Positions 6,766 to 19,601 of a DNA stretch of 64,000 nt are shown here, one piece after another (position 1 is the first letter of the stretch; every line of letters begins with the position of its first letter). The stretch spans positions 374-64,373 of the forward strand of contig CAYPAX010000005.1 of assembly GCA_964408735.1 (NCBI GenBank), in the 5' to 3' direction. Origin of the DNA: an uncultured Rhodospirillaceae bacterium (GTDB lineage Bacteria > Pseudomonadota > Alphaproteobacteria > UBA7887). A program made the position numbers and the translations under genes. Below the pieces are notes generated by a model. It did no database searches. It saw only the letters and a list, made by a program, of their open reading frames with translations, and was not told the origin of the DNA.

Positions 6766-8157
6766 CTATTGGAACATTTCCGCGTAATGGGTCAGCGCCC
6801 AGCCGATCATCTCGTCGCCCATGTCGACGCTGCGGTTCATGTTGCGGTCGCGCCAGGCGAAGGCGGCGCCGGAATCCATCCACTCGTTTATGGTCTTCTC
6901 CTGGCTCAAGGCCGTGATGTTGGCCAGCGGCGGCAGGTATTCGGAGCCGAAATAGATCGCCTGCGCGGGGTCGGCCGCGACCATCGAGTAGCAGCTCGTA
7001 TAGGGGCTCTCCCATTCGATCTCGTGGCCGGCGATGCGCCCGGCGATGACCTTGGCGACGAAGCGCGCCTCGGCCTGCGCCGTCGAGCCGCTCTTGGAGA
7101 AGCCGGTGGAGCGGGAATCGCCGATCACGTAGACGTGAAAGTCGTCGATCAGATTGTTGCGGTACTGGCTGATGCGAGCTTCCATCTGCGGGCTGGTCTC
7201 GCTGACCAGTCCCATGGTCTCGATCAGGCGGGCGCCGCGGATGCGCGGATAGATCGAGGCATCGTCGAACTGGTAGTCGTCGATGTCCTCGATGAGGATC
7301 TTGTTCTCCACGTCTACCCCGCGCACCTTCGTCGAGGGGTAATACTCGATGTAGTCCTTGTAGAGCTCGTCGAAGGCCGCATGGAAGCCTTCGCCCTTGA
7401 TCTTGATGTCGTGATTGTTGTCGAGCAGCACCACCTTGGCCGGCAGCTTCTTGCGCTTGAACACGGCGGCGATCATGCAGGCGCGCTCATAGGGCGCCGG
7501 CGGGCAGCGGTAATTGCCGCTCGGCACCGTGAGCAGGAAGATGCCGCGGCGGAAATTGTCGACCTTCTGCTTGAGCGTGATGTGCTCGGAGCCAGGCTTG
7601 AAGGCAGCGGGGAAGTGGGTCATCACCGCTTGCTTGTGTTCGGGTTCGTGCACGCCGATATCGTCGTAGTCGTAGTCGATGCCCGGCGACAGCACCAGAT
7701 AGTCGTAATCGACGTAGCCCTTCTCGGTATAGACACGCTTCTTGTCGCGATCGACGTCGACCACCGTGGCGTTGAAGAAGGTGTAATCGTTGTTGCGCGC
7801 CGCATCGACGAAGCTGTGGATGAGGAACTTGTAGTCGATGATGTCGGCGAGCCAGAGATTGCTGACCGGGCAGGACATGAAGACCGAGCGCCGCTCGATC
7901 AGGATCACCTCCATCTCCGGCACCCGCAGCTTTAGGTGCTTGGCCATGGTCAGGCCGCCCCAGCCGCCGCCGATGACGACCCCTCGCAGGCCGCGCTTGG
8001 GTGGCAGCTCGGCCATGTTTTCGACCAAAATGACCGGTTGGTGTGGCACGGATTGGGCCGCGTTCGCCGTGCGTCCGCCCAGGCCTGCCGCCATCATGCC
8101 CGCGGTCGCACCCGCGGTTCCGGCAAGAAATTTGCGTCTCGACAGATCTTTTTTCAC
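6766..8157 (-). CDS. Tat-exported flavocytochrome c sulfide dehydrogenase flavoprotein (FccB/SoxF family)
   Basis: SRRKFL Tat motif, GGGWGG FAD fold, SCPVSN, YRCPPAPYERA, SKSG, TSCYS redox-cysteine motifs. Confidence 0.85.
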   Translation of the reverse strand: MKKDLSRRKFLAGTAGATAGMMAAGLGGRTANAAQSVPHQPVILVENMAELPPKRGLRGVVIGGGWGGLTMAKHLKLRVPEMEVILIERRSVFMSCPVSNLWLADIIDYKFLIHSFVDAARNNDYTFFNATVVDVDRDKKRVYTEKGYVDYDYLVLSPGIDYDYDDIGVHEPEHKQAVMTHFPAAFKPGSEHITLKQKVDNFRRGIFLLTVPSGNYRCPPAPYERACMIAAVFKRKKLPAKVVLLDNNHDIKIKGEGFHAAFDELYKDYIEYYPSTKVRGVDVENKILIEDIDDYQFDDASIYPRIRGARLIETMGLVSETSPQMEARISQYRNNLIDDFHVYVIGDSRSTGFSKSGSTAQAEARFVAKVIAGRIAGHEIEWESPYTSCYSMVAADPAQAIYFGSEYLPPLANITALSQEKTINEWMDSGAAFAWRDRNMNRSVDMGDEMIGWALTHYAEMFQ

Positions 8158-8346
8158 GTCTCTTCCCGTTCCAGCTCCAAGGTGACTCTCGCAGCGGCCA
8201 TTGTGGCGGCCTTATTTTGTGGCGCGGGACACTAGCAGAACGCGTCAGCGCACGCCAATGCCGCCAGCTTGTTCCGGTCCGGGCAAGCGTGTACGCTTGC
8301 CGGCGCTGTGCGAGATCGAAAGCTTGATGGACTGTGGCGCCAAGGT

Positions 8347-8841
8347 TTGGCGCCGGAATTGACGAGGCGCCACCTGGTGTTGGGCGCCGGCGCTGTGGCT
8401 TTGCTCGGGCCGGCCGTGCAAGCCCAGGAGAGCGAGCTGGTTGCGCCGCCGGAGTCCCACGAGGCGGAGCTTGCCGCCAACCGCGTCAAGGCGGAGAGCA
8501 TCCTGGCCGGCGTTATCGCCGGGCGGCCTTTGCGCGACGGCCTGATCTCGGGGACGGTGCCGGATATCGCCGAGGACGGCAGCGCCGTGCCTGTCTCCTT
8601 CAAGGTTGCCTGCTCGATGAGCGGGGAGGACTATCCGGCCTCGGTCCACGTCATCGCCATGGTCAATCCCTTCCCGGAGATCGCGCGCTACCATTTCACG
8701 CCCGCCTGTGGCGAGGCCGAGGTCTCGTTTCGCTGTCGCATGCGGGCGACCTCGGACCTGGTGCTGGTGGCGGACATGGCCGACGGCACGGTGGGGCTGA
8801 GCAAGCACTTCGTCAATGTCACCATGGGCGCCTGCTCGTAA
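8347..8841 (+). CDS. soxY: SoxY-like sulfur carrier protein (Tat), non-canonical C-terminal arm; exact start uncertain
   Basis: TRRHLV Tat motif, PDIAEDGSAVPV, NPFP, RMRATSD, C-terminus VNVTMGACS. Confidence 0.8.
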   Translation: MAPELTRRHLVLGAGAVALLGPAVQAQESELVAPPESHEAELAANRVKAESILAGVIAGRPLRDGLISGTVPDIAEDGSAVPVSFKVACSMSGEDYPASVHVIAMVNPFPEIARYHFTPACGEAEVSFRCRMRATSDLVLVADMADGTVGLSKHFVNVTMGACS

Positions 8842-8850
8842 GGGGGCGAA

Positions 8851-9198
8851 GTGGCGGAACGCGACAGGCGGCGGCGATTGCGAGTACCGAAGACGGCGGT
8901 GCCGGGCGAGATCATCCAGATCAAGTGCCTGGCCGAGCATGTCATGGAGTCGGGCCGCCGCAAGCATCCCGAGACCGGCGAGCTGGTGCCGCGGTTCCTC
9001 ATCAACCGCATGGAATGCCGCTACAACGGCGAGCTGGTGTTTTTCGCCGACTGGTTCAACGGCATGTCGGCCAATCCCTATTCCGCCTTCAAGCTCAGGG
9101 CCACGGAGTCCGGCACGATCGAGGTGACCTGGATCGAGGACGACGGCACCGTGACCACGGCCTCGCGCGATATCGAGGTGGCCGAGCTGTCGGAATAA
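8851..9198 (+). CDS. soxZ: SoxZ-like sulfur carrier subunit
   Basis: HVMESGRRK, G.LVPRFLI, YNGELVF, MSANPY..F, VTWIEDDG. Confidence 0.85.
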   Translation: MAERDRRRRLRVPKTAVPGEIIQIKCLAEHVMESGRRKHPETGELVPRFLINRMECRYNGELVFFADWFNGMSANPYSAFKLRATESGTIEVTWIEDDGTVTTASRDIEVAELSE

Positions 9199-10009: not shown

Positions 10010-10462
10010 GTGATAACTCTGACTGTCAATGGTAAGTCCCATAGCGTAGAGGCGGCACCAGATACGCCTTTGCTCTGGGTGCTGCGCGAGCATATCGGCT
10101 TGAACGGCACCAAGTACGGTTGCGGCATCGGCGAATGCGGTGCCTGCAACGTCCACATGAATGGTGAGCTGATCAAGTCTTGCCAAACTTCCATCGGCAA
10201 GGCGGCCGGTGCGACCGTGACCACGATCGAAGGTCTCGGTGCCAATGGCCTGCACCCGGTCCAGCAAGCGTTCATCGACGAGAACGTGACCCAGTGTGGC
10301 TGGTGCATTCCTGGCCAGATCATGACCATCGCCATGATGCTGGAGACCAATCCGGAGCCCACCGATCACGAGATCGATATGGCTCTGCGTGAGAATTATT
10401 GTCGCTGCGGGACGTATACTCGCGTTCGCAAGGCAATCCACAGAGCCGCTAGCTCTGCTTAA
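10010..10462 (+). CDS. (2Fe-2S)-binding small subunit of xanthine-oxidase-family enzyme (IorA-like)
   Basis: GTKYGCGIGECGAC, QCGWC.PG, NYCRCGTY; GGAGG RBS. Confidence 0.93.
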   Translation: MITLTVNGKSHSVEAAPDTPLLWVLREHIGLNGTKYGCGIGECGACNVHMNGELIKSCQTSIGKAAGATVTTIEGLGANGLHPVQQAFIDENVTQCGWCIPGQIMTIAMMLETNPEPTDHEIDMALRENYCRCGTYTRVRKAIHRAASSA

Positions 10463-10479
10463 GAATAGGGGAGGCAGAG

Positions 10480-12699
10480 ATGAGTGAAATGATGAATGTA
10501 ACGCGTCGTGGCTTCATGACCACGGCGGTGGCCGCCGGTGGCGGTCTTATGATCGGTCTGCCGCTCGGGCTTAAGGGCGGCAAGATGGCTCTTGCCGCCG
10601 GTGGCGCCGAGCTCAGCGCATGGGTTCATGTCGCTGCGGACAACACCATCACCCTCAGGGCCAGTCAGACCGAGCTCGGTCAGGGCAGCACCATGGGTAA
10701 CCTGATGATGTTCGCCGAAGAGTTCGAGTGCGACTGGAGTGCGATCGAGTTCGAGTTCGGAACCGGTCGTCCGGAATACGTCAACCCGCTGGTCGGCCTG
10801 CAGTTGACGGGTGGCAGCACCGCTACCCCGGGCTTCTGGGGCGTGATGCGCAAGGCTGGCGCCCAGGCCCGGCATATGCTGCTGCAGGCTGCGGCCAAGC
10901 AGTGGGGCGTGGACGCAGGCGATTGCACGGCCAAGAACAGCATGGTCATGTGCGGCGACAAGTCCGCTACCTTTGGCGAGCTTGCCGAAGCTGCTGCGGC
11001 GGAGACTCCGCCGGAGGATCCGGTGCTCAAGGGCTATGACGAGTTCAGCCTGCTCACCACTCACGTGGACCGTCTCGATAGCGAGATCAAGGTTACCGGT
11101 GCGGCCGAGTACTGCATGGACATCTCGGTGCCCGGCATGGTCGTCGGCGCCATCCGTCATGCGGACTTCGGCGGTGGCATCGCCAGCTACGACGAAGCTG
11201 CGGCCAAGGCCGTTGCCGGTGTTCATGACGTCATCGTCGTGGGTGCCGAGGCTCCCGCCATCTTCCTCGAGAACAACGTGCCTGCGCTGATCGTGACTGC
11301 CGATTCCTATTGGCAGGCTGAACAGGGCATGAAGGCGGCCAATCCGCAGTTCGACTCCGGTGAGTGGGCCGATCTGAATTCCGCCAAGATCTCGCAGACC
11401 TTCCAGGAAGGCCTCGGGCAAGAAGGCAAGCTGGGCCGTGCCGACGGCGACGTCGATGGTGCGCTCGCGGGCGCCGCGACGGTGCTCGAGTCGGTCTACG
11501 AAGTGCCCTATATGAGCCACACGCCGATGGAGCCGGCCAATACCCTCGCCGATTTCCGTGGCGATTCGGCCGAGATCTGGACTGCCACCCAGACCCCGGG
11601 TGCCTGCTACATCGTGGCCGAGATGATCACTGGTCTGTCCCAGGACAAAATCAAGGTTCATCAGCCGTTCCTCGGTGGTGGTTTCGGCCGTCGCAACGAG
11701 GTGGATTACTTCGAGCAGGCTCTCGAGGCGTCCATGAAGGTCGGCAAGCCGGTCAAGTTGATCTGGTCGCGTGAAGAGGACATGCAGCACAACTTCCATC
11801 GTCCGGCCTATGCCGCGAAGATGACTGCTGGCCTCGACGCCGACGGCAACCCGGTTGCCTGGCGGCACAAGATCGTTGGTCCTGGCATTTGGCTGTCGCC
11901 GATGCGCTCGTCCCGCCTCAAGGACCTGTTCGCCGGTTCCGACTTCATGAACGGCATGCAGGAGAGCGGCGTCGATTTCCATAGCGTCCAGGGCGCCAAG
12001 GACATCGGCTACGACTTCGCCAACCTCGAAGTCGAGTGGGTGCAGAAGGACTTCCCGGTGCCGATCGTGTTCTTCCGTGGTGTGGGTAACACCCAGAACT
12101 CGTTCTTCATCGAGTCCTTCATCGATGAGATTGCGGACGCCTCCGGGCAGGACCCGTTCGAGCTTCGTCAGAAGCTGCTTGCCAAGGAGCCGCGCATGCT
12201 TGCGACTCTCGAGCTGGCTGCTGAGAAGTCCGGCTGGGGCACGCCTTTGGATCGCGGTCATCATCGTGGCATCGCCTTCCACAACAGCTTCGACTCGCCC
12301 TTCGCGGACGTTGTCGAGCTGTCCGTGCGTGGCGGTCGTCGCGTGACCATCCACAAGGTCACCCGCGCCATCGATTGCGGTCTGGTTGTCAATCCCGACA
12401 GCTGGGATTCGCAGATGCAGAGCGGTCTGGTCATGGGCCTCCACCATACTTTCTTGGCGGAGCACACCGTGTCCCAGGACAAGCTGGTGCAGAGCAACTT
12501 CAATACCTACAAGTTGCCGCGCATCTCGCAGATGCCTGAGTGGTCTGCCCATGCAGTGCAGAACACCAACGATCCGACCGGCATCGGCGAACCGGTGTTC
12601 CACACCGTGGCGCCTGCGATCTGCAATGCCATCTTCGCAGCGACCGGCAAGCGTCTGCGCTCGCTGCCGCTGAAGAACCATGGCATGAGCCTGGCGTAA
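10480..12699 (+). CDS. Tat-exported molybdopterin-binding subunit, isoquinoline 1-oxidoreductase beta / aldehyde oxidoreductase family (IorB-like)
   Basis: TRRGFM Tat motif, ELGQG, TGGS, HTPMEP, LGGGFGRR, WSREEDM, FRGVG, GIGEP catalytic Glu. Confidence 0.92.
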   Translation: MSEMMNVTRRGFMTTAVAAGGGLMIGLPLGLKGGKMALAAGGAELSAWVHVAADNTITLRASQTELGQGSTMGNLMMFAEEFECDWSAIEFEFGTGRPEYVNPLVGLQLTGGSTATPGFWGVMRKAGAQARHMLLQAAAKQWGVDAGDCTAKNSMVMCGDKSATFGELAEAAAAETPPEDPVLKGYDEFSLLTTHVDRLDSEIKVTGAAEYCMDISVPGMVVGAIRHADFGGGIASYDEAAAKAVAGVHDVIVVGAEAPAIFLENNVPALIVTADSYWQAEQGMKAANPQFDSGEWADLNSAKISQTFQEGLGQEGKLGRADGDVDGALAGAATVLESVYEVPYMSHTPMEPANTLADFRGDSAEIWTATQTPGACYIVAEMITGLSQDKIKVHQPFLGGGFGRRNEVDYFEQALEASMKVGKPVKLIWSREEDMQHNFHRPAYAAKMTAGLDADGNPVAWRHKIVGPGIWLSPMRSSRLKDLFAGSDFMNGMQESGVDFHSVQGAKDIGYDFANLEVEWVQKDFPVPIVFFRGVGNTQNSFFIESFIDEIADASGQDPFELRQKLLAKEPRMLATLELAAEKSGWGTPLDRGHHRGIAFHNSFDSPFADVVELSVRGGRRVTIHKVTRAIDCGLVVNPDSWDSQMQSGLVMGLHHTFLAEHTVSQDKLVQSNFNTYKLPRISQMPEWSAHAVQNTNDPTGIGEPVFHTVAPAICNAIFAATGKRLRSLPLKNHGMSLA

Positions 12700-12714
12700 G
12701 AGCCGTTTGGAAGT

Positions 12715-12740
12715 GGGTCGGGGACACGAATCCCCGACCC
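12715..12740. repeat. Perfect GC-rich hairpin, GTGG-footed REP-like element
   Basis: GGGTCGGGGA-cacgaa-TCCCCGACCC, 10-bp perfect stem with no U-tract. Confidence 0.55.
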
Positions 12741-12762
12741 GCCTTCAACAAGACAATGACTG

Positions 12763-12794
12763 TTCCGGCGGCCCGTTTGGCTGCCGGAATTTTT
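12763..12794 (+). terminator. Probable intrinsic terminator between iorB and the first cytochrome c
   Basis: TTCCGGCGGCC-cgttt-GGCTGCCGGAA followed by TTTTT. Confidence 0.6.
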
Positions 12795-12806
12795 CGTGAA
12801 GGCACC

Positions 12807-13184
12807 ATGAGTAGAGTAATGATTGCAGCGTGCGCCGTGGCGCTTCTGTTCGCCACCGCTGCCTACGCGGTGGATATCAAGGATGCCGCGGTTATCGAGG
12901 AAGGCAAGCGCACCTTCAATATCCATTGCGCCGTCTGCCATGGCCCCGGCGGTGCTGGCGGCGCCGGTCCGAACCTGACCGATCAGTATACGCGGCATGG
13001 CGAGAAGTACGAAGATATGCTGGCGGTGGTCACCTCGGGCGTGCTTGATGTCGGCATGCCGAATTGGGGCGAGCGCCTGAGCGAGGAGCGGCGACGTCAG
13101 GTCGCGGCTTACGTATTCAGCCTGTTCGGAACCCGGCCCAGGGACAAGCCGCCGGGCGCCAACGCCAATCTCACTCTGATGTAG
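12807..13184 (+). CDS. Periplasmic monoheme class I cytochrome c (CcoP C-domain-like), copy 1
   Basis: Signal peptide (AYA), CAVCH, GPNLTD, GMP distal Met. Confidence 0.9.
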   Translation: MSRVMIAACAVALLFATAAYAVDIKDAAVIEEGKRTFNIHCAVCHGPGGAGGAGPNLTDQYTRHGEKYEDMLAVVTSGVLDVGMPNWGERLSEERRRQVAAYVFSLFGTRPRDKPPGANANLTLM

Positions 13185-13247
13185 GCGTACTCTTACACGC
13201 CAAGCCCAGTGAGATTCTTCTTGTATCGTGAAAGGACGTCCAAAACG

Positions 13248-13625
13248 ATGCGTAAGGCAACGACCGGCCTCTGTGCCCTCGCCATTCTGGCCACATCAAC
13301 CGCCCACGCCGTGGACTATCGTGATGAGACGGTCATCACCGAAGGCAAGCGGACTTTCAACATATACTGTTCCGAATGTCATAGTCCGGGCGGTATCGGC
13401 GGCATGGGCCCGAACCTCACCGACCAGCACACGCTGCATGGCAACGCCTACGAGGACATGGTCGCGCTGATCACCGAAGGCGTGCTTGATGTCGGCATGC
13501 CGAAATGGGGCGTGCGCATGACCGAGGAGCGAATTCGCACCGTCGCAGCCTACGTCTTCAGCCTATACGGCACCCGTCCCAAGACGGAAGAAGCGGACGG
13601 CGAGCACCAGCTTACTCAGGAATAG
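13248..13625 (+). CDS. Periplasmic monoheme class I cytochrome c, copy 2 (tandem paralog)
   Basis: Signal peptide (AHA), CSECH, GPNLTD, GVLDVGMP; AAGGA RBS. Confidence 0.9.
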   Translation: MRKATTGLCALAILATSTAHAVDYRDETVITEGKRTFNIYCSECHSPGGIGGMGPNLTDQHTLHGNAYEDMVALITEGVLDVGMPKWGVRMTEERIRTVAAYVFSLYGTRPKTEEADGEHQLTQE

Positions 13626-14646
13626 GCGGCACGACCTCGTAAACCCAATAGCTGCCGTAATTGGCCACCAGCTTCAGGCCCTCCAAATCGAGTGGCTCGA
13701 ATTCGCCAAAGGGTAGGATGTTCATCAAAAGCGAGTTGGCGGTCTCTTCGTCGGCAACGTAATAGACGCGATTGCGCGCAATGCCCATTTGCTCCACGGC
13801 ATAGATGCCAAAGCCTTGGCGCGCCAACCAATCCTTGACCTGCCGTATGTCGTCGTGGATTTCGCCGGTGCGCGAAAAGTCGCGATAGCCGATGCCGATC
13901 GCCTGCGGGCGTGCCAGTGCCAGCTTGTAGGCATCTGCGAGCTGCACTGCGATGAAGGCCGACCGCTCGTCGACGATCCCGGCGAGCATGGCGAGGCCTT
14001 CCTCTGCCGGGGCCGCCAAGGCATCTACGAAGCGGGCGAAATCGCTGGCTTCCGGCTCGGGCATGCGCCAGAAGACGCGCTCGAGGGACTCGATCGAATC
14101 ACGCTTGTCATGCCAAGCGGGCGGTAGAATCAACGGCCGTGGCAAGTTCTGGTCGTAGTGGACAGCAACGCCGCTCAGCACCGAGAGCTGGCGGCTCGTG
14201 TCCCACCAGGCGAGCATCACGGCATCGTCCGGCACGTGCTCGATGACCGCCTCGGCGAGACGGTCGAGCTCCATGCCGCGGCCGGGCAGGGCGAGCGCAT
14301 CGGCGCCTGGCGCGGTTTGCCAGTCCAGCAGGACAGGACCGATGCCCTCGCCGAGATCGACCACATGTAATGACGCCAGGTCGGCATTGCTGGTGGCATC
14401 CCGCACCGCGAACTGCCGCAAGGTCAGTCCATCCGGGACCGACAGGCCGAGATCTGGGAAGTCCGCGATGTCGCCCTCGGCGACCAGCTCATAGCGATAC
14501 GGCGCCGGGTCGGGCATGATGAGATCGCAGCCGGCCCAATCGATCAGCACGAAGCCGACGATGATGAACGCCCCGTAGATGTAGGGCAGGCGGCGGTTGA
14601 GCCAGCTTCGCCCGGGCCGGCGGCCTCGCTCAGGAGTCGTCGTCAG
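13612..14646 (-). CDS. haoB: Hydroxylamine oxidation protein HaoB (orf2); probable CTG start at 14646, first canonical start 14550
   Basis: N-terminal TM then PAPYRYELV, LAWWDTSRQL, E..FW, LLMNILPF, YWVYE; directly downstream of hao. Confidence 0.8.
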   Translation of the reverse strand: MTTTPERGRRPGRSWLNRRLPYIYGAFIIVGFVLIDWAGCDLIMPDPAPYRYELVAEGDIADFPDLGLSVPDGLTLRQFAVRDATSNADLASLHVVDLGEGIGPVLLDWQTAPGADALALPGRGMELDRLAEAVIEHVPDDAVMLAWWDTSRQLSVLSGVAVHYDQNLPRPLILPPAWHDKRDSIESLERVFWRMPEPEASDFARFVDALAAPAEEGLAMLAGIVDERSAFIAVQLADAYKLALARPQAIGIGYRDFSRTGEIHDDIRQVKDWLARQGFGIYAVEQMGIARNRVYYVADEETANSLLMNILPFGEFEPLDLEGLKLVANYGSYWVYEVVPPIPE

Positions 14647-16351
14647 GGTCCGACTTCCTGCGCCGCAACAGCAGTCCCGTCACCCCGACCAGCATCAGGG
14701 CACCGCCAAGGCTGCCCACGGAGGCACGCTCGAGGTCGCTGTCGAGATCGAGCATGGCAAGGCCGCTCTTCTGCTCCACCGCTGCCAATCGCATGCGGAT
14801 CGACTCCATCTCGCGTTGGCGTGTGTCCGCGTCCATGATCCTGGCATAGCAGCCGACCAGCGGGCTCCAGCCCTCGCTGTAGGCCCAGCCGCCGGGATTG
14901 GTGTGCATGACACCCTTGTAGAGCTGGTTCAAATCGTTGCGGCACGCGCTGGCATATTCGAACTCGATGGCGCTCGGATTGTTGCCGGAGGCGATGAACA
15001 TCTGGTGGAAGGCACCGGGCGCGTCCTCGATAGGCTCTGGCGGTGCGGGACGGTTGCTGTCCTGTCCCACCAGCAGGCCATCCGCATGCAGCGCTTCGAG
15101 GGCGCGCTTGGCCTCCTGCTGCACTTCGAGCCCGGCCTTGATGCTGTTGTCGGCCATCTCCTGATAGGCGCGAGCGAAACTCTCCGAATGGCAGCGGCTG
15201 CAATTGGCGATCCAGGCTTCCTTGCGCTGTTCGAACCAGCTGTCGCCGAGATTGTCGGCGATCTCGGGCATTGGCGTGAAGCCCCAGCGCACCTTACGCA
15301 CCATGTTATGGCCGAACTGGCCCTTGAACTCGAAGTGGCAGCTGGCGCAGGTCGGCGCGGTCTGGCCGCCAAGGGCATAGGCGTCCTGCAGGCGCACCTC
15401 CCAGTCCCAGTCGTCGCCGCTGGTCTGGTAGATGGTGCCGTGCTTGGACATCATGTAGTTCTCGAACTCGTTATGAGCGATGCCGTTGTGACAGGTCGCG
15501 CAGGCCTCGGGCTTGCGCGCCGCCGCGGCCGAGAAGGTGTGCCGGGTGTGGCAGCTGTCGCACTTGTTCTGATTCGAATGGCATTCGGCGCAGCCCTCGG
15601 CCACCTCACGCTCGGCCAGGCCCGCCCACATGGCGAGCTCGACCATGCCGTGGTAGTCGAGCGCGTGGGACGGCCGCCCCGCCGGCCACTGTTCCTGCGG
15701 CCAATGCAGGGTGTCGCGCTCGGATTCGCGCTCGGCGAACTCCTGCAAATGGCAGGCGCCGCAGACCGCGGCATCGGGCAGGCGCAGGTCGCGCTTGTGG
15801 TCCGCCTGGCCGTCGCGCATGAGCTCCACATGGCAGTCCATGCAGCTCACTTCCGAGAGCGTATCGCCTTCGTCCATATAGCCGAGCGCCACCAGGTTGC
15901 GCTCCACAGCGACAAGCTTTTCCCGCTTATAGTAGCGCGAATCATCGGGGCTGAGATTGCGGATGGCGTTGAGATTGGCATGGACGCTGGCCTTCCAGGC
16001 CATGGTGTGCCCGGCGGTGTCCTTCTCATGGCAATCGACGCAGCCCTGGCGATCCGAGCCTTTGCCCTTCTCGGGCGGCTCGTAGAAGCTCTGCGGGTTG
16101 GTGTATTTGCTGAACGGGATCGGATCCCAGAAATCGGCCAGGCTGCCTTCGCCCGCGCCTTCGGCCGGGTCGTGATAGCGCCACTCGAGGGCGTCGTAGA
16201 GCTCGGCCGGGTCGCCGCCTTCGTCGATGGGGTAGACGCCCAACGCCTCATACGTCTCGGGCGGAATGTCGGCCTCAGCGGCCCCGGTCAACCCTGCCGC
16301 GAAGACCAGCGCCAGAGCCAACTTGCCCATACCTTTCAGGGAAATCGCCAT
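14630..16351 (-). CDS. haoA: Octaheme hydroxylamine oxidoreductase (HAO) family protein
   Basis: Signal peptide, 8 CxxCH (CVDCH, CMDCH, CGACH, CAECH, CDSCH, CATCH, CASCH, CSRCH), QEFAERESERDT, WPAGRPSHALDY, HTRHTFS, HTNPGGWAYSEGW, C-terminal GSLGGALML membrane anchor. Confidence 0.92.
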   Translation of the reverse strand: MAISLKGMGKLALALVFAAGLTGAAEADIPPETYEALGVYPIDEGGDPAELYDALEWRYHDPAEGAGEGSLADFWDPIPFSKYTNPQSFYEPPEKGKGSDRQGCVDCHEKDTAGHTMAWKASVHANLNAIRNLSPDDSRYYKREKLVAVERNLVALGYMDEGDTLSEVSCMDCHVELMRDGQADHKRDLRLPDAAVCGACHLQEFAERESERDTLHWPQEQWPAGRPSHALDYHGMVELAMWAGLAEREVAEGCAECHSNQNKCDSCHTRHTFSAAAARKPEACATCHNGIAHNEFENYMMSKHGTIYQTSGDDWDWEVRLQDAYALGGQTAPTCASCHFEFKGQFGHNMVRKVRWGFTPMPEIADNLGDSWFEQRKEAWIANCSRCHSESFARAYQEMADNSIKAGLEVQQEAKRALEALHADGLLVGQDSNRPAPPEPIEDAPGAFHQMFIASGNNPSAIEFEYASACRNDLNQLYKGVMHTNPGGWAYSEGWSPLVGCYARIMDADTRQREMESIRMRLAAVEQKSGLAMLDLDSDLERASVGSLGGALMLVGVTGLLLRRRKSDPDDDS

Positions 16352-16355
16352 CTTC

Positions 16356-17042
16356 CTACCAGTTCTCCGTCGGCTCTTGGAAATGCCGCAAATGCCAATT
16401 GGCATCCTTGTATGCCTCGCTCTCTTCGCCCGGGCGGTTGCGCCCGAGCGCGATCTCCATCTCGCGAACCTCGAGGTAATATTTTGCCATGTCGGCGGGC
16501 GGCAAGGCGATGCGCGCGCCGGCCATCGGCGTGTGGCAGGAGATGCAGCTCGTGGTCTTGGCGTCGTAGCCGCGTCCGACCACTGCCAGGGTCAGCAGCA
16601 GCCATACCGCCAGCGAGCCGCCGCCTATCAGCAGGCGGGTACGCTTGGCCATGCGCGGCTGTTCGTTCCAGCGCTTGCGCCCGAACAGGAAGGGAATGGC
16701 CAGGAGGAACAGAATGACGCCAAGCGGGATCCAGAAGGTGCCGATCTGCCGCAGGGCCTCATTTTCGGCCCCGAGCTGCCAGAACGGCTCGAAGACCGCC
16801 AGCAGGTACCACTCGGGCGCGGGCACGCTGACGCCGTGGTCGGGCAGCGGCGGCATGTCGTGGTTGGTGGGCACACGGTAGGCGAGGGATAGCACCACGA
16901 TCAGCACGAAAGTGATGACCACCGTTATCCCCGCCTTGAAGGCGTGCTTGGGATAGAAACGGTGGAATTCTTGCGGGTAGGGCGGGTCGTACTTGTCGTC
17001 GACGAGGATATCCCGGCCCTTCTTGTCCTTGAATTCGGCCAT
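16356..17042 (-). CDS. Cytochrome b6f subunit IV (PetD/QcrC)-like membrane protein with C-terminal c-type heme
   Basis: FYPKH, PEWY motif, three hydrophobic helices, then CISCH and DANWHLRHFQEP; GGAG RBS. Confidence 0.82.
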   Translation of the reverse strand: MAEFKDKKGRDILVDDKYDPPYPQEFHRFYPKHAFKAGITVVITFVLIVVLSLAYRVPTNHDMPPLPDHGVSVPAPEWYLLAVFEPFWQLGAENEALRQIGTFWIPLGVILFLLAIPFLFGRKRWNEQPRMAKRTRLLIGGGSLAVWLLLTLAVVGRGYDAKTTSCISCHTPMAGARIALPPADMAKYYLEVREMEIALGRNRPGEESEAYKDANWHLRHFQEPTENW

Positions 17043-17051
17043 CTCCGCCCC

Positions 17052-17684
17052 CTACAGCGGCTCGGCGATGCCGTGCTTCTTGACCATCGAGAAATGGAAG
17101 AAGAGCAGCATGAAGAGGATCGCCGGCAGCACCAGCACGTGGATGATGAAGGTGCGGTAGATGGTGAAGGTGTCGAGCAGGAAGGCCTGCACGAAGCCGC
17201 CTATCAGCGGCCAGGTCTCCACATAATCGACCCAGATGGCGTAGGACCAATAGGCGCGCCAGTCCCACGGCAGGATGATGCCCGTGACCACGAACAGGAA
17301 GACCGTGAGGAACTGCAACACGCCCGACATCCAGTTGAATTCGCGCGGATTGCGATAGGCTCTGCGATAGAACACCGTGACCATATGGGTGAACACGGCC
17401 GCCACCAGGATAGTCGAGCCCCAGCGGTGCATGTTGCGCATCAGCCAGCCGCCGGTGATCTCGTTGCTCATGCGCTCGATGCTTTGCAGCGCAAGCTCCG
17501 GATTGGGCATGTAGAACATGACCAGGAAAATGCCCGTGAGCAGCTGCAGCACGATGATGAAAAGCGAGATGCCGCCGAAGCAGTAGTAAAAGGCGTTGTT
17601 GGGGACTGCCTGCGACATCTTCTCGCGCGCGAAGCCGCCAACGCCGGTTCGTGACTCGAACCACTGGTAGAGCCCGGAACTCAT
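17052..17684 (-). CDS. Cytochrome b6-type (split cytochrome b N-terminal half, PetB/QcrB-like)
   Basis: YYCFGGI (heme ci Cys), RNMHRW..H pair, PREFNW, LPWD, H-x14-H in helix D, C-terminal GIAEPL; AGGAG RBS before ATG 17684. Confidence 0.9.
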   Translation of the reverse strand: MSSGLYQWFESRTGVGGFAREKMSQAVPNNAFYYCFGGISLFIIVLQLLTGIFLVMFYMPNPELALQSIERMSNEITGGWLMRNMHRWGSTILVAAVFTHMVTVFYRRAYRNPREFNWMSGVLQFLTVFLFVVTGIILPWDWRAYWSYAIWVDYVETWPLIGGFVQAFLLDTFTIYRTFIIHVLVLPAILFMLLFFHFSMVKKHGIAEPL

Positions 17685-17868
17685 AGACCGCTGTCTCCTC
17701 ATCTCGCCGGCCTTCGCCGTTGGCCCAAAATAGCCTTATCGAACGCCGTCTGGCCAGTCCCTGAGACGGAAAAACGCAACAGTTGCCGCCATAGTCATTC
17801 CGCACTTGACGCGGGGCTGAGAGTCGGGGACCGTGCGCGCCATGGCGAGAATGACGAGGAAGCATCGC

Positions 17869-19005
17869 ATGCGGCCCGTGGCAGCGGTTTTCGGGGCTTT
17901 CGGCTGCGCTGTCGTTGCCTCCGGCGCGGTGGCCTTCGACGACACAGATCTGCAGCGGCTGGCCGCCCTCAACCAGTGCGAAGCCTGTGATTTGCGTGAG
18001 GCAACGCTGGCGGGTGCCGACCTCAGCGGCGGCGCCTTGGTGCGGGTGGACTTGCGCCAGGCCGATCTGCGCCAGGCCGATCTCAGCCACGCGCTGCTGC
18101 CGCAGGCGCGCCTCGGCAAGGCCGATATGAGCGGCGCCGACCTTACCCGCGCCATGCTGCGCGAGGCCGATTTGCGCAATGCCATTCTGGCGGATGCGGC
18201 GATGGGGTTTGCCGATTTGGGCTATGCGCAGCTGAGCAATGCCAATCTTGCTGGCGCCCGCTTGGCCCGTGCGGAGTTGGGCCGCGCCACCTTGCGGCGC
18301 AGCGACCTGACCGGCGCCAATCTCGGCAAGATCGAAGCCATCGATGCCGATCTCTCGGGCGCCACGCTGATCGGCGCCAACCTGACCCGGGCCAATCTTC
18401 GCAAGGCCTTCATGGGCGAGGCGGACCTTACCGGCGCGCATATGACCGAGGCGGTACTGAGCCGCGCCGACCTTGCCGGGGCGATCCTGGTCTCGGCCAA
18501 TCTCGAACAGGCGAGCCTGCGCGCCTCGTACCTCAACGATGTGGATCTCAGCCGGGCGAACCTGGTGGATGCGGATCTGTCGGGCGCCGATCTGAGCGGC
18601 GCCAACTTGCACCGGACGCAGGCGCGCGGCGCCATCTTCGCCCGCGCCATCCTCAGCAGCGCCACCCTCACGGCGGCCGATCTCAGCGGTGCCGATCTGG
18701 CCGGCGCGCTTGTGGATAACGCCGATTTCAGCGCCGCGCTGCTGGCCGGTGCCAGCTTCGTCAAGGCCGACCTGAACAATGGCACGCTGGATCGTGCCGA
18801 CCTCAAGGGCGCGACCTTGCGCGATGCCAATCTGCGCGGCGCCAGTCTGGCCGGCGCCGACCTCAGCGCCGCCGTGCTGCGCAAGGCCAATCTCAGCGAG
18901 GCCGATCTCTCCGGCGCCATATTGGAGGGCGCGGATCTCACCGGCGCCATCCTCTGCGCGACAAAGATGCCTTGGGGCGAGGAGAACGGGGGATGCGAAG
19001 AATGA
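17869..19005 (+). CDS. Secreted pentapeptide-repeat protein (long)
   Basis: Signal peptide, CEACDL cap, dozens of A(D/N)LxG repeats, C-terminal CATKMPWGEENGGC. Confidence 0.92.
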   Translation: MRPVAAVFGAFGCAVVASGAVAFDDTDLQRLAALNQCEACDLREATLAGADLSGGALVRVDLRQADLRQADLSHALLPQARLGKADMSGADLTRAMLREADLRNAILADAAMGFADLGYAQLSNANLAGARLARAELGRATLRRSDLTGANLGKIEAIDADLSGATLIGANLTRANLRKAFMGEADLTGAHMTEAVLSRADLAGAILVSANLEQASLRASYLNDVDLSRANLVDADLSGADLSGANLHRTQARGAIFARAILSSATLTAADLSGADLAGALVDNADFSAALLAGASFVKADLNNGTLDRADLKGATLRDANLRGASLAGADLSAAVLRKANLSEADLSGAILEGADLTGAILCATKMPWGEENGGCEE

Positions 19006-19601
19006 GGCTTGCCGTGCTCTGTCTGCTGGCTTTTGCCACGCCGGCGCTTGCCTTCGATGACGCCCATCTCGCGGCGCTCGAGGCCGAGGGCCAGTGTATC
19101 GCCTGCGACCTGTCCGGCGCCGATCTTGCCGGCGCTGCGCTTGCCAAGGCCAATCTCTGGCGCGCTGACCTCAGCGGCGCCAATCTCGCCGCTGCCGATC
19201 TCAGCGGTGCCAACCTCCGCGATGCCGACCTTACGGGCGCCGACCTCAGCGGGGCGCTCCTCAGCGAGGCCAATCTCAAATATGCCGGTCTCGCCGCTGC
19301 CGACCTCAGCACCGCCAAGCTGACCGGGGCCAACCTGCTCGCCGCCGACCTTGCCGGCGCAAACCTCAGCGGTGCCGACTTGACCTACGCCTATCTCGCC
19401 CATGCCGACTTGCGCGGCGTCAACGTTGCCGGCAGCACCTGGCAGAACGCCACCTTGAGCGAGGCCGACCTCGATCGTACCGACCTGACCGACCTCGACC
19501 TCACCAGCGCCGCCTTGCGCAACACCAAAGTTGCCGGCGCCACCTTTTGCCGCACCCAGACTCCCTGGGGCCAAGAGGATTCCGGCTGCGGCGACCTATG
19601 A
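19002..19601 (+). CDS. Secreted pentapeptide-repeat protein (short paralog)
   Basis: ATGA coupling, signal peptide ALA, CIACDL cap, ADLSG/ANL repeats, CRTQTPWGQEDSGC. Confidence 0.92.
   Translation: MRLAVLCLLAFATPALAFDDAHLAALEAEGQCIACDLSGADLAGAALAKANLWRADLSGANLAAADLSGANLRDADLTGADLSGALLSEANLKYAGLAAADLSTAKLTGANLLAADLAGANLSGADLTYAYLAHADLRGVNVAGSTWQNATLSEADLDRTDLTDLDLTSAALRNTKVAGATFCRTQTPWGQEDSGCGDL

Follow-up and report, generated by a model that had tools for sequence, protein, structure and literature searches.

Whether hydroxylamine oxidation is mere detoxification or conserves energy is decided by the link of hydroxylamine oxidoreductase (HAO) to the respiratory chain. Outside the nitrifiers that bear cycA and cycB, we know of no established connection of this kind. 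How HAO might reach the quinone pool is the question raised by a 64,000-nucleotide stretch of DNA from an uncultured Rhodospirillaceae bacterium (assembly GCA_964408735.1, contig CAYPAX010000005.1, positions 374 to 64,373 of the forward strand; hereafter the window), in which genes for an octaheme HAO (haoA) and for HaoB (haoB) lie in one apparent operon with genes for a cytochrome b6-type protein (b6) and a subunit-IV-like protein with a C-terminal c-heme domain (sIVc). With modest confidence, we read this operon as a hydroxylamine:quinone oxidoreductase system, in which a Rieske-less module resembling the cytochrome b6f complex replaces the cytochrome c554/cM552 pair. Its function is predicted throughout from sequence. 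As a conserved operon with a b6f-like module in place of cycAB, it offers a concrete candidate for an alternative wiring of HAO. Coordinates below are positions of the window, and C-numbers denote other contigs of the same genome, which has 219 contigs and is rated 100% complete.

Organization of the operon and its HAO proteins

The four genes run on the minus strand in the order b6, sIVc, haoA, haoB. The cytochrome b6-type subunit (17052..17702; PF00033, 8e-34) is followed after 9 nucleotides (nt) by sIVc (16356..17042), a subunit-IV-like membrane protein with a C-terminal single c-heme domain. The longest open reading frame (ORF) of haoA, an octaheme HAO of the ammonia-oxidizer type (14630..16405; PF13447, 5e-137), overlaps sIVc by 50 nt when read from 16405; the likely start is the ATG at 16351, with a predicted signal peptide after it, which leaves a gap of 4 nt. 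Directly downstream of haoA lies haoB (TIGR04392, 247 bits against a cut-off of 200), spanning 13612..14550 from its first canonical start in a frame that is open to 14679; this first ATG/GTG/TTG (GTG 14550) stands 79 nt past the haoA stop. Profile matches and motifs bear out the identities and places that a first-pass annotation had given to the four minus-strand genes, namely b6, a subunit IV with PEWY and CISCH, an octaheme HAO and HaoB. Its gaps of 9 nt and 4 nt also stand, but the overlap it saw between haoA and haoB holds only with a non-canonical HaoB start. The spacing suggests that the four genes are co-transcribed; no terminator-like site was found on the minus strand over 13612-17702.

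HaoA matches the Nitrosomonas europaea HAO (4fas) at 3e-191 over nearly its whole length, aligned from residue 46 to 584. All eight CxxCH motifs are invariant in 22 of 22 aligned HaoA sequences, and so is the tyrosine at the cross-link position (Y491, counted from the 16351 start), which aligns to the tyrosine in the GGW-x-Y-x-EGW stretch of 4fas. The latter is Tyr467 in 4fas numbering, the residue that cross-links to the catalytic heme P460. With these heme motifs, the cross-link tyrosine and haoB downstream, HaoA is predicted to be an oxidizing, nitrifier-type enzyme. Its identity is 55% with Nitrosococcus HAOs and 54% with the HAO of Ruegeria pomeroyi. Eleven database clusters at 70-92% identity make up a distinct group, after which identity drops to 60% or less. 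The protein has a C-terminal membrane helix. Among 72,556 plasmid records, HaoA found 3 matches, of which only that of Ruegeria pomeroyi exceeded 80% coverage; a plasmid-borne precedent for the arrangement was rejected, as sIVc had no match in the same records.

Upstream of the first ATG/GTG/TTG of haoB (14551-14679, minus strand), the open frame already codes for the N-terminal membrane helix of the protein, in a stretch that overlaps the haoA stop. The start region is alike in the closest relative (locus L011), and more distant relatives have a canonical start further upstream, before the helix. A non-canonical start, coupling to haoA and a truncated protein are all possibilities here.

The b6 and subunit-IV-like proteins

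Could the two proteins encoded upstream of haoA carry electrons to quinone? The nearest solved relatives of b6 are cyanobacterial cytochromes b6 (2zt9 at 1.8e-39; 1vf5 also aligned). It is a four-helix protein of about 215 residues, and its start is probably the Met at 17684, since its relatives begin there. Its four histidine ligands align to both structures; His92, His106, His188 and His203, together with Cys41 of a CxGG motif, are invariant in 15 of 15 members, with at most one exception in 56. CxGG is described as the heme ci binding motif in PMC4122944. Thus, b6 is predicted to bind hemes bL and bH and, probably, heme ci.

For sIVc, neither Pfam (PF00032 included) nor NCBIfam gave a match, and the protein has 102 database homologues. 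Three membrane helices are predicted, with PEWY between helices 1 and 2 and CISCH past helix 3. By the known topology of subunit IV, the heme domain that follows helix 3 would lie on the periplasmic side of the membrane, the side on which c-hemes are attached. Of 60 sequences, all but at most one keep P76, W78, C166, C169, H170 and H220, and E77, Y79 and Met173 are at least 90% conserved. The heme domain itself, of about 65 residues, matched no cytochrome c family. A profile alignment places sIVc on the C-terminal half of a 391-residue fused cytochrome b whose N-terminal half is PF00033 (hhalign probability 99.1%), and because of this alignment we take sIVc to stand in the place of the cytochrome b C-terminal region. 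The bc1 cytochrome b of the same genome reached an hhalign probability of only 37%, over 50 columns, and Atlas leads to PF00032 scored 0.79-0.84.

Structure prediction gave little more. The AlphaFold2 models of sIVc are of low confidence, with a mean predicted local distance difference test (pLDDT) score of 59.5 with 26 rows and 65.0 with 97 rows; the model with mean pLDDT 65 has three long helices (31-54, 95-120 and 133-158). A Foldseek search of the low-confidence model against the PDB returned 0 matches at E <= 0.001. A complex prediction of b6, sIVc and HaoA (residues 28-573) scored 0.00 against a mark of 0.32 and, being without controls, counts neither way.

The copies of sIVc that stand beside hao differ from the rest of the family at three positions. 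All 8 hao-linked sequences have Glu85, Ser165 and Thr171, where the other members have Gln (48/52), Gly (51/52) and Asn (48/52), respectively. Residue 85 lies in the Qo helix after PEWY, and residues 165 and 171 flank the heme c motif.

Conservation beside hao in related genomes

We surveyed 41 related genomes and found sIVc in 11 of them, always beside hao (11/11). All carriers belong to one alphaproteobacterial family, whose named members are filed as Rhodospirillaceae or as MarineAlpha9 metagenome-assembled genomes. In nine of the 11, haoB is present on the same contig, about 2.8 kb from sIVc; in the other two the contig ends inside haoA. A pattern scan of public genomes, with one genome per species, recovered the same gene order in 7 of 64 sIVc loci, so that the arrangement in the window is not chance. 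The co-conservation of sIVc with hao that the first-pass annotation had set as a check therefore holds for the 11 of 11 sIVc genes within the family, but it does not extend across the wider set of 64 loci.

The 17 sequencing runs listed as containing this DNA are all of marine or seawater DNA, several of them possible sources; no RNA run was among them.

The module outside hao loci

The scan that yielded the 64 loci, all from metagenome-assembled genomes, detected b6 upstream of sIVc in 57/64, and hao follows in 7/64. In the remaining 57 loci sIVc occurs without hao, often beside a clade III N2O reductase, and the view that the module is dedicated to HAO had to be given up. The usual cassette of these non-hao loci, spread over several phyla, encodes a lipoprotein, b6, sIVc, two Vgb-lyase-like beta-propeller proteins and a cytochrome c (loci L016-L072, e.g., L023:4952-12168), and the first beta-propeller gene is present in 50/57. 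In 22 of the 57, a clade III lactonase-type N2O reductase (L-NosZ; NF052460, 750 bits against a cut-off of 700) stands in front of the module. None of the 7 hao loci has L-NosZ, lipoprotein or beta-propeller genes beside the module, in contrast to the clade III nosZ clusters. The protein families are nevertheless shared with those clusters: by tblastn, sIVc is 37-55% and b6 50-67% identical, and the cofactor residues are identical. PMC13685413 and PMC13477213 mention "b-type cytochromes" among the products of clade III nosZ clusters and describe their function as undefined.

These distributions suggest that b6-sIVc is a general quinone module accompanying various periplasmic redox enzymes. The electron supply of the recently found clade III N2O reductases, which it also accompanies, is likewise undefined, so that biochemical work on this one module could inform two nitrogen-cycle steps.

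How the module came to stand beside hao can be followed in part from a quick maximum-likelihood tree built on 60 sequences of sIVc. In it, one group (SH-aLRT 99) unites the eight hao-linked sequences, and their nearest neighbors (support 91) are alphaproteobacterial sIVc sequences of the cassette type, three of five with L-NosZ. The tree has a midpoint root and one very long branch (L054), and we claim no donor or root from it. We read this pattern as a possible single takeover of the module by HAO, in a direction that hangs on the midpoint root.

In the window's genome, L-NosZ had no close match; a 23%-identical stretch over 619 residues was the only one (C81:9918-11642), and it is probably a conventional N2O reductase gene. 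Further variants of the cassette were seen among the non-hao loci. In genomes filed as Zetaproteobacteria, Gallionella and relatives, L-NosZ is missing from the cassette, and a second gene stands before it, a b6-sIV fusion of about 391 aa that has one CxxCH (L025, L030, L031, L036, L039-L042, L045, L052-L054, L056, L061, L064 and L066). In one copy of the fused gene that was read, AEWF replaces PEWY, and in L042, the one locus checked for it, an FGE-sulfatase-like gene also lies in front of the cassette. Three loci (L035, L038 and L050) have sIVc and two propeller genes, with no b6 upstream by tblastn within the locus.

Rieske, c554, NapC and monooxygenase genes

Does the module lack a Rieske partner, and could the usual carriers of HAO electrons be encoded elsewhere? 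Profile searches placed matches for Rieske, c554, NapC-type (cM552) and amo genes on other contigs or nowhere, so the claim that the window contains none of them stands. Four Rieske-domain (PF00355) genes occur in the genome, on C88, C45, C22 and C3, and none on the window's contig. That on C22 belongs to a canonical bc1 operon. The C3 gene (C3:73823-74386; locus L004:1411-1977) encodes a twin-arginine translocation (TAT) signal and adjoins a gene for a di-heme cytochrome c peroxidase/MauG-like protein; it is limited to the window's genus and one other genome, and 4 of the 11 sIVc-bearing related genomes have it. On C45 lies a gene with a bc-type box, which is found in 17 of the 41 related genomes; these include 6/6 of a genus that does not carry sIVc, and the gene is missing from 3 genomes that do. 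Thus, neither of the two orphan Rieske genes on C3 and C45 is co-distributed with sIVc.

The same picture holds for the homologous loci. A Rieske-box pattern was sought in the 64 loci, which cover up to 8 kb and several phyla, and in the window; none of the matches was credible, the strict form gave 0/65, and the loose form matched in 15/65 sources, all in unlikely frames, while the controls were found in 4/4. The first-pass annotation's view of the locus as Rieske-less is accordingly upheld, with no credible Rieske in any of the 64 homologous loci. A b6/subunit IV pair with PEWY, the ligands of both b hemes, the heme ci cysteine and no Rieske partner would amount to a natural experiment on the Q cycle.

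The c554 domain (PF13435) had no match anywhere in the genome. Of the two NapC/NirT genes (PF03264), on C59 and C10, one is part of a napABC operon and the other adjoins the gene for a NapA-like molybdoenzyme. In related genomes, ORFs with a c554 domain do not stand beside hao, except for one weak match inside haoA itself. The genome-wide search that had been proposed for Rieske, amo and cycAB genes therefore gave a divided answer: Rieske genes and an amoCAB operon exist on other contigs, c554 is absent, and NapC occurs only in nap-like operons.

That operon (C70:19732-25820; locus L074:9733-15821) encodes a copper monooxygenase (CuMMO) in the order amoC-amoA-amoB. Against the NCBI models of bacterial ammonia monooxygenase (AMO), AmoA scores 327 with a cut-off of 290 bits, AmoB 530 with 336 and AmoC 359 with 319; the best solved relatives are gammaproteobacterial particulate methane monooxygenases (pMMO). 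Downstream lie a 251-aa ORF, a multicopper oxidase gene and a CusF-like ORF. The substrate of this CuMMO could be ammonia, methane or short alkanes, and with such an operon in the genome it is not safe to describe the organism as an apparent heterotroph lacking amo. The reading as a canonical nitrifier or methanotroph was rejected as well: neither the RuBisCO large subunit nor Fae was found in the genome rated 100% complete, which has four pyrroloquinoline quinone (PQQ) alcohol dehydrogenases over the cut-off. Among the 41 related genomes, amoA occurs in six, five with sIVc and one without the module. The carriers of the operon are marine alphaproteobacteria, represented here only by metagenome-assembled genomes, some with and some without an AMO-like monooxygenase; therefore, hydroxylamine turnover in seawater may involve organisms that are not counted as nitrifiers.

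Proposed electron path and its alternatives

In the reading that we favor, periplasmic octaheme HaoA with HaoB would oxidize hydroxylamine and pass the electrons to the single c-heme of sIVc on the periplasmic side, from which they would reach quinone through b6-sIVc. The joint action of the four proteins, the flow of electrons from HAO to quinone and the choice of quinone site are all inferred. Two routes can be drawn. The electrons could follow the path c, bL, bH, ci to quinone on the cytoplasmic side (route A), which would add a charge-separating step, or the c-heme could reduce quinone at a periplasmic Qo-like pocket (route B), which would be electroneutral and thermodynamically easier. 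Because the heme b ligands, the heme ci cysteine and PEWY are invariant in the hao-linked copies, we think that the b hemes are used, as in route A; we make no choice between the two routes, and our modest confidence covers the hydroxylamine-to-quinone reading as a whole. On the best reading, HAO has taken over a quinone-reactive module, which would play a part like that of cM552 in nitrifiers. The latter protein, of the NapC/NrfH type, is a case in which a reversal of flow is accepted, as reportedly set out by Simon and Klotz 2013. The b6-sIVc family at large stands in a terminal-reductase context, and electron flow there should therefore be opposite to that proposed here.

Several points weigh against this reading. 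The usual partner of the module, clade III NosZ, is a reductase, so that b6-sIVc would oxidize quinol there and the proposed direction would be the reverse. PEWY is a quinol-oxidation motif. The midpoint potentials are about -30 mV for hydroxylamine/NO and about +90 mV for ubiquinone, and because of them there would be little driving force through the b hemes against the membrane potential. The likeness of sIVc to subunit IV is weak: the b6f subunit IV profile matches at E 0.8-0.96, with PEWY aligned, and sIVc has no PF00032 match and no fold match. Of the 11 genomes with sIVc, 8 have ORFs with a c554 domain elsewhere, as do 10 of the 30 without. Six of the 11 genomes with the module have no CuMMO match, at a completeness of 98-99% in four, 86% in one and 70% in one. 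Moreover, the bc1 Rieske protein encoded on C22 could serve in trans, and the two monoheme cytochromes c encoded next door could be alternative acceptors.

The first of these points leads to an opposite direction of flow, in which b6-sIVc oxidizes quinol and HaoA reduces NO, nitrite or hydroxylamine, or acts as an electron sink. The 22 of 57 non-hao loci that place the module directly after the gene for a reductase, L-NosZ, speak for it, as does the conservation of PEWY and of all Q-cycle cofactor ligands, and the HAO-like protein of the anammox b6/subunit IV complex is proposed to reduce nitrite (PMC12954380). However, HaoA is a near full-length match to the oxidizing N. europaea enzyme, with the cross-link tyrosine in 22/22 sequences, and HaoB is present, which is known only beside oxidizing HAOs. 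By its midpoint potential, moreover, ubiquinol would be too weak a reductant for the step from nitrite or NO to hydroxylamine, and we consider this reversal rather improbable. A similarly small chance attaches to the idea that the genes are neighbors without a direct wire. HaoAB would then have soluble cytochromes c as its acceptors, with an oxidase next in line, as is assumed for the HAO of methanotrophs, and b6-sIVc would be a separate, co-regulated Rieske-less quinol:cytochrome c oxidoreductase. Two monoheme cytochrome c genes do lie no more than 1 kb away, with synteny in 5 hao loci, and haoAB of Ruegeria pomeroyi functions without a dedicated quinone module. Yet the 9- and 4-nt gaps make b6, sIVc and haoA look like one transcription and translation unit, sIVc adjoins hao in all 11 family genomes that have it, and the two cytochromes c are encoded on the opposite strand, in line with a molybdenum hydroxylase operon. 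Their placement on that strand, within the [2Fe-2S]/molybdenum hydroxylase operon, also led us to reject them as part of the hao system in our preferred reading.

Less probable still is a borrowed Rieske protein, from the bc1 operon on C22 or from an orphan gene, in which case HAO would be an added subunit of an ordinary Rieske/cytochrome b complex, like that of anammox bacteria. Such a loan could draw on the four Rieske-domain genes of the genome, including that on C3 with its TAT signal and that on C45 with its bc-type box, and PEWY is conserved; but only 4 of the 11 sIVc-bearing genomes have the C3 gene, that on C45 occurs in 6/6 genomes of a genus lacking sIVc and went undetected in 3 genomes with it, and no credible motif was found within up to 8 kb in the 64 loci, with the controls recovered in 4/4. 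The hydroxylamine-to-quinone reading can also be extended, to a version that we hold to be unlikely: the carriers may be an unrecognized guild of marine alphaproteobacterial hydroxylamine oxidizers, and ammonia oxidizers where an amoCAB-like operon is present, with an electrogenic hydroxylamine-to-quinone step through a Rieske-less heme-ci complex. Electrons would enter at the periplasmic c-heme and cross the membrane through bL, bH and ci, and quinone would be reduced with cytoplasmic protons. If true, this would be an energy-conserving redox loop that is absent from the cM552 route of known nitrifiers, and a second, independent recruitment of a reductase-type quinol dehydrogenase running backwards for HAO.

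Relation to described systems

Is the arrangement a variant of something already known? It shares with the haoA-haoB-cycA-cycB module of ammonia oxidizers (HAO, c554 and cM552) the type of HaoA, the presence of HaoB and a presumed delivery of electrons to quinone. What sets it apart from that module is that the genome does not encode c554, that a NapC-type gene is missing from the locus and that b6 and sIVc lie upstream of haoA, whereas cycAB lie downstream in ammonia oxidizers. Because it has no cycA or cycB, the operon is not a member of the nitrifier redox module. The hydroxylamine-ubiquinone redox module is a named concept in PMC11135946. Methanotrophs and Ruegeria pomeroyi have a similar haoA-haoB pair in a genome of non-nitrifier type; their loci have no quinone module, and in R. 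pomeroyi an aminotransferase gene and ccm genes come next.

With cytochrome b6f and the Firmicutes QcrB/QcrC proteins, the operon has in common a split cytochrome b, the CxGG cysteine, PEWY and a C-terminal c-heme on subunit IV. QcrC is a subunit IV with a C-terminal c-heme domain. Unlike these complexes, the operon has no Rieske gene at the locus and an unmatched heme domain of about 65 residues, and electron flow is proposed towards quinone. Clades of cytochrome b-cytochrome c fusions are described in PMC4122944, where Rieske-less cytochrome b systems as such are also already known.

In anammox bacteria, Kuste4569-4574 encode b6-like, subunit-IV-like and HAO-like octaheme proteins together with a Rieske protein, according to PMC12954380. 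The likeness is that a HAO-family protein is joined to b6-like and subunit-IV-like proteins. Only the anammox complex includes a Rieske protein, an NAD(P) oxidoreductase and additional multiheme cytochromes, and nitrite reduction is the role proposed for its HAO-like protein; the operon described here has four genes, no Rieske gene at the locus and an oxidizing-type HaoA with HaoB, in an aerobic marine alphaproteobacterium. Outside anammox bacteria, we found no description of hao with a b6/subunit IV pair in the full-text literature, a search that did not cover supplementary material or the primary clade III NosZ paper. The novelty suggested in the first-pass annotation thus stands outside anammox bacteria, and it is limited by the anammox precedent with a Rieske protein (PMC12954380).

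A third cytochrome b in the genome (C38:19558-24603; locus L075:558-5603) carries two 4Fe-4S motifs and an FlpD domain as fused parts. Its gene adjoins those for a COX1-type oxidase subunit, a UbiA-family prenyltransferase of the heme O synthase type and SCO1, and the protein resembles the Rieske-less "PDWF-FeS" clade described in PMC4122944.

Flanking genes

Upstream of b6, a 130-nt intergenic region (17703..17832) separates the operon from divergent pentapeptide-repeat genes, and its position suggests that it holds the promoter; a scan of 13000-18200 for the sigma-70 consensus found no promoter-like site. The two pentapeptide-repeat genes (17833..19601, plus strand; PF00805, 3e-97 and 5e-37) are syntenic in five hao loci (L010, L012, L014, L015 and L044). 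The proteins have hydrophobic N-termini, and the upstream one has a Cys-rich tail at its end.

On the other side, a convergent plus-strand operon (10010..13625) encodes a [2Fe-2S] small subunit, a molybdenum hydroxylase large subunit (MoCoBD) and two monoheme cytochromes c (PF13442), and its terminal gene overlaps the haoB end by 14 nt. This neighborhood is syntenic in L011, L012, L013, L015 and L044, with two to four cytochrome c genes. The molybdenum hydroxylase operon and the pentapeptide-repeat genes are conserved neighbors, and we do not claim that they belong to the system. Directly upstream of the molybdenum hydroxylase operon, the stretch 6766-9198 encodes a flavocytochrome-c-type sulfide dehydrogenase flavoprotein on the minus strand, followed by soxY and soxZ on the plus strand.

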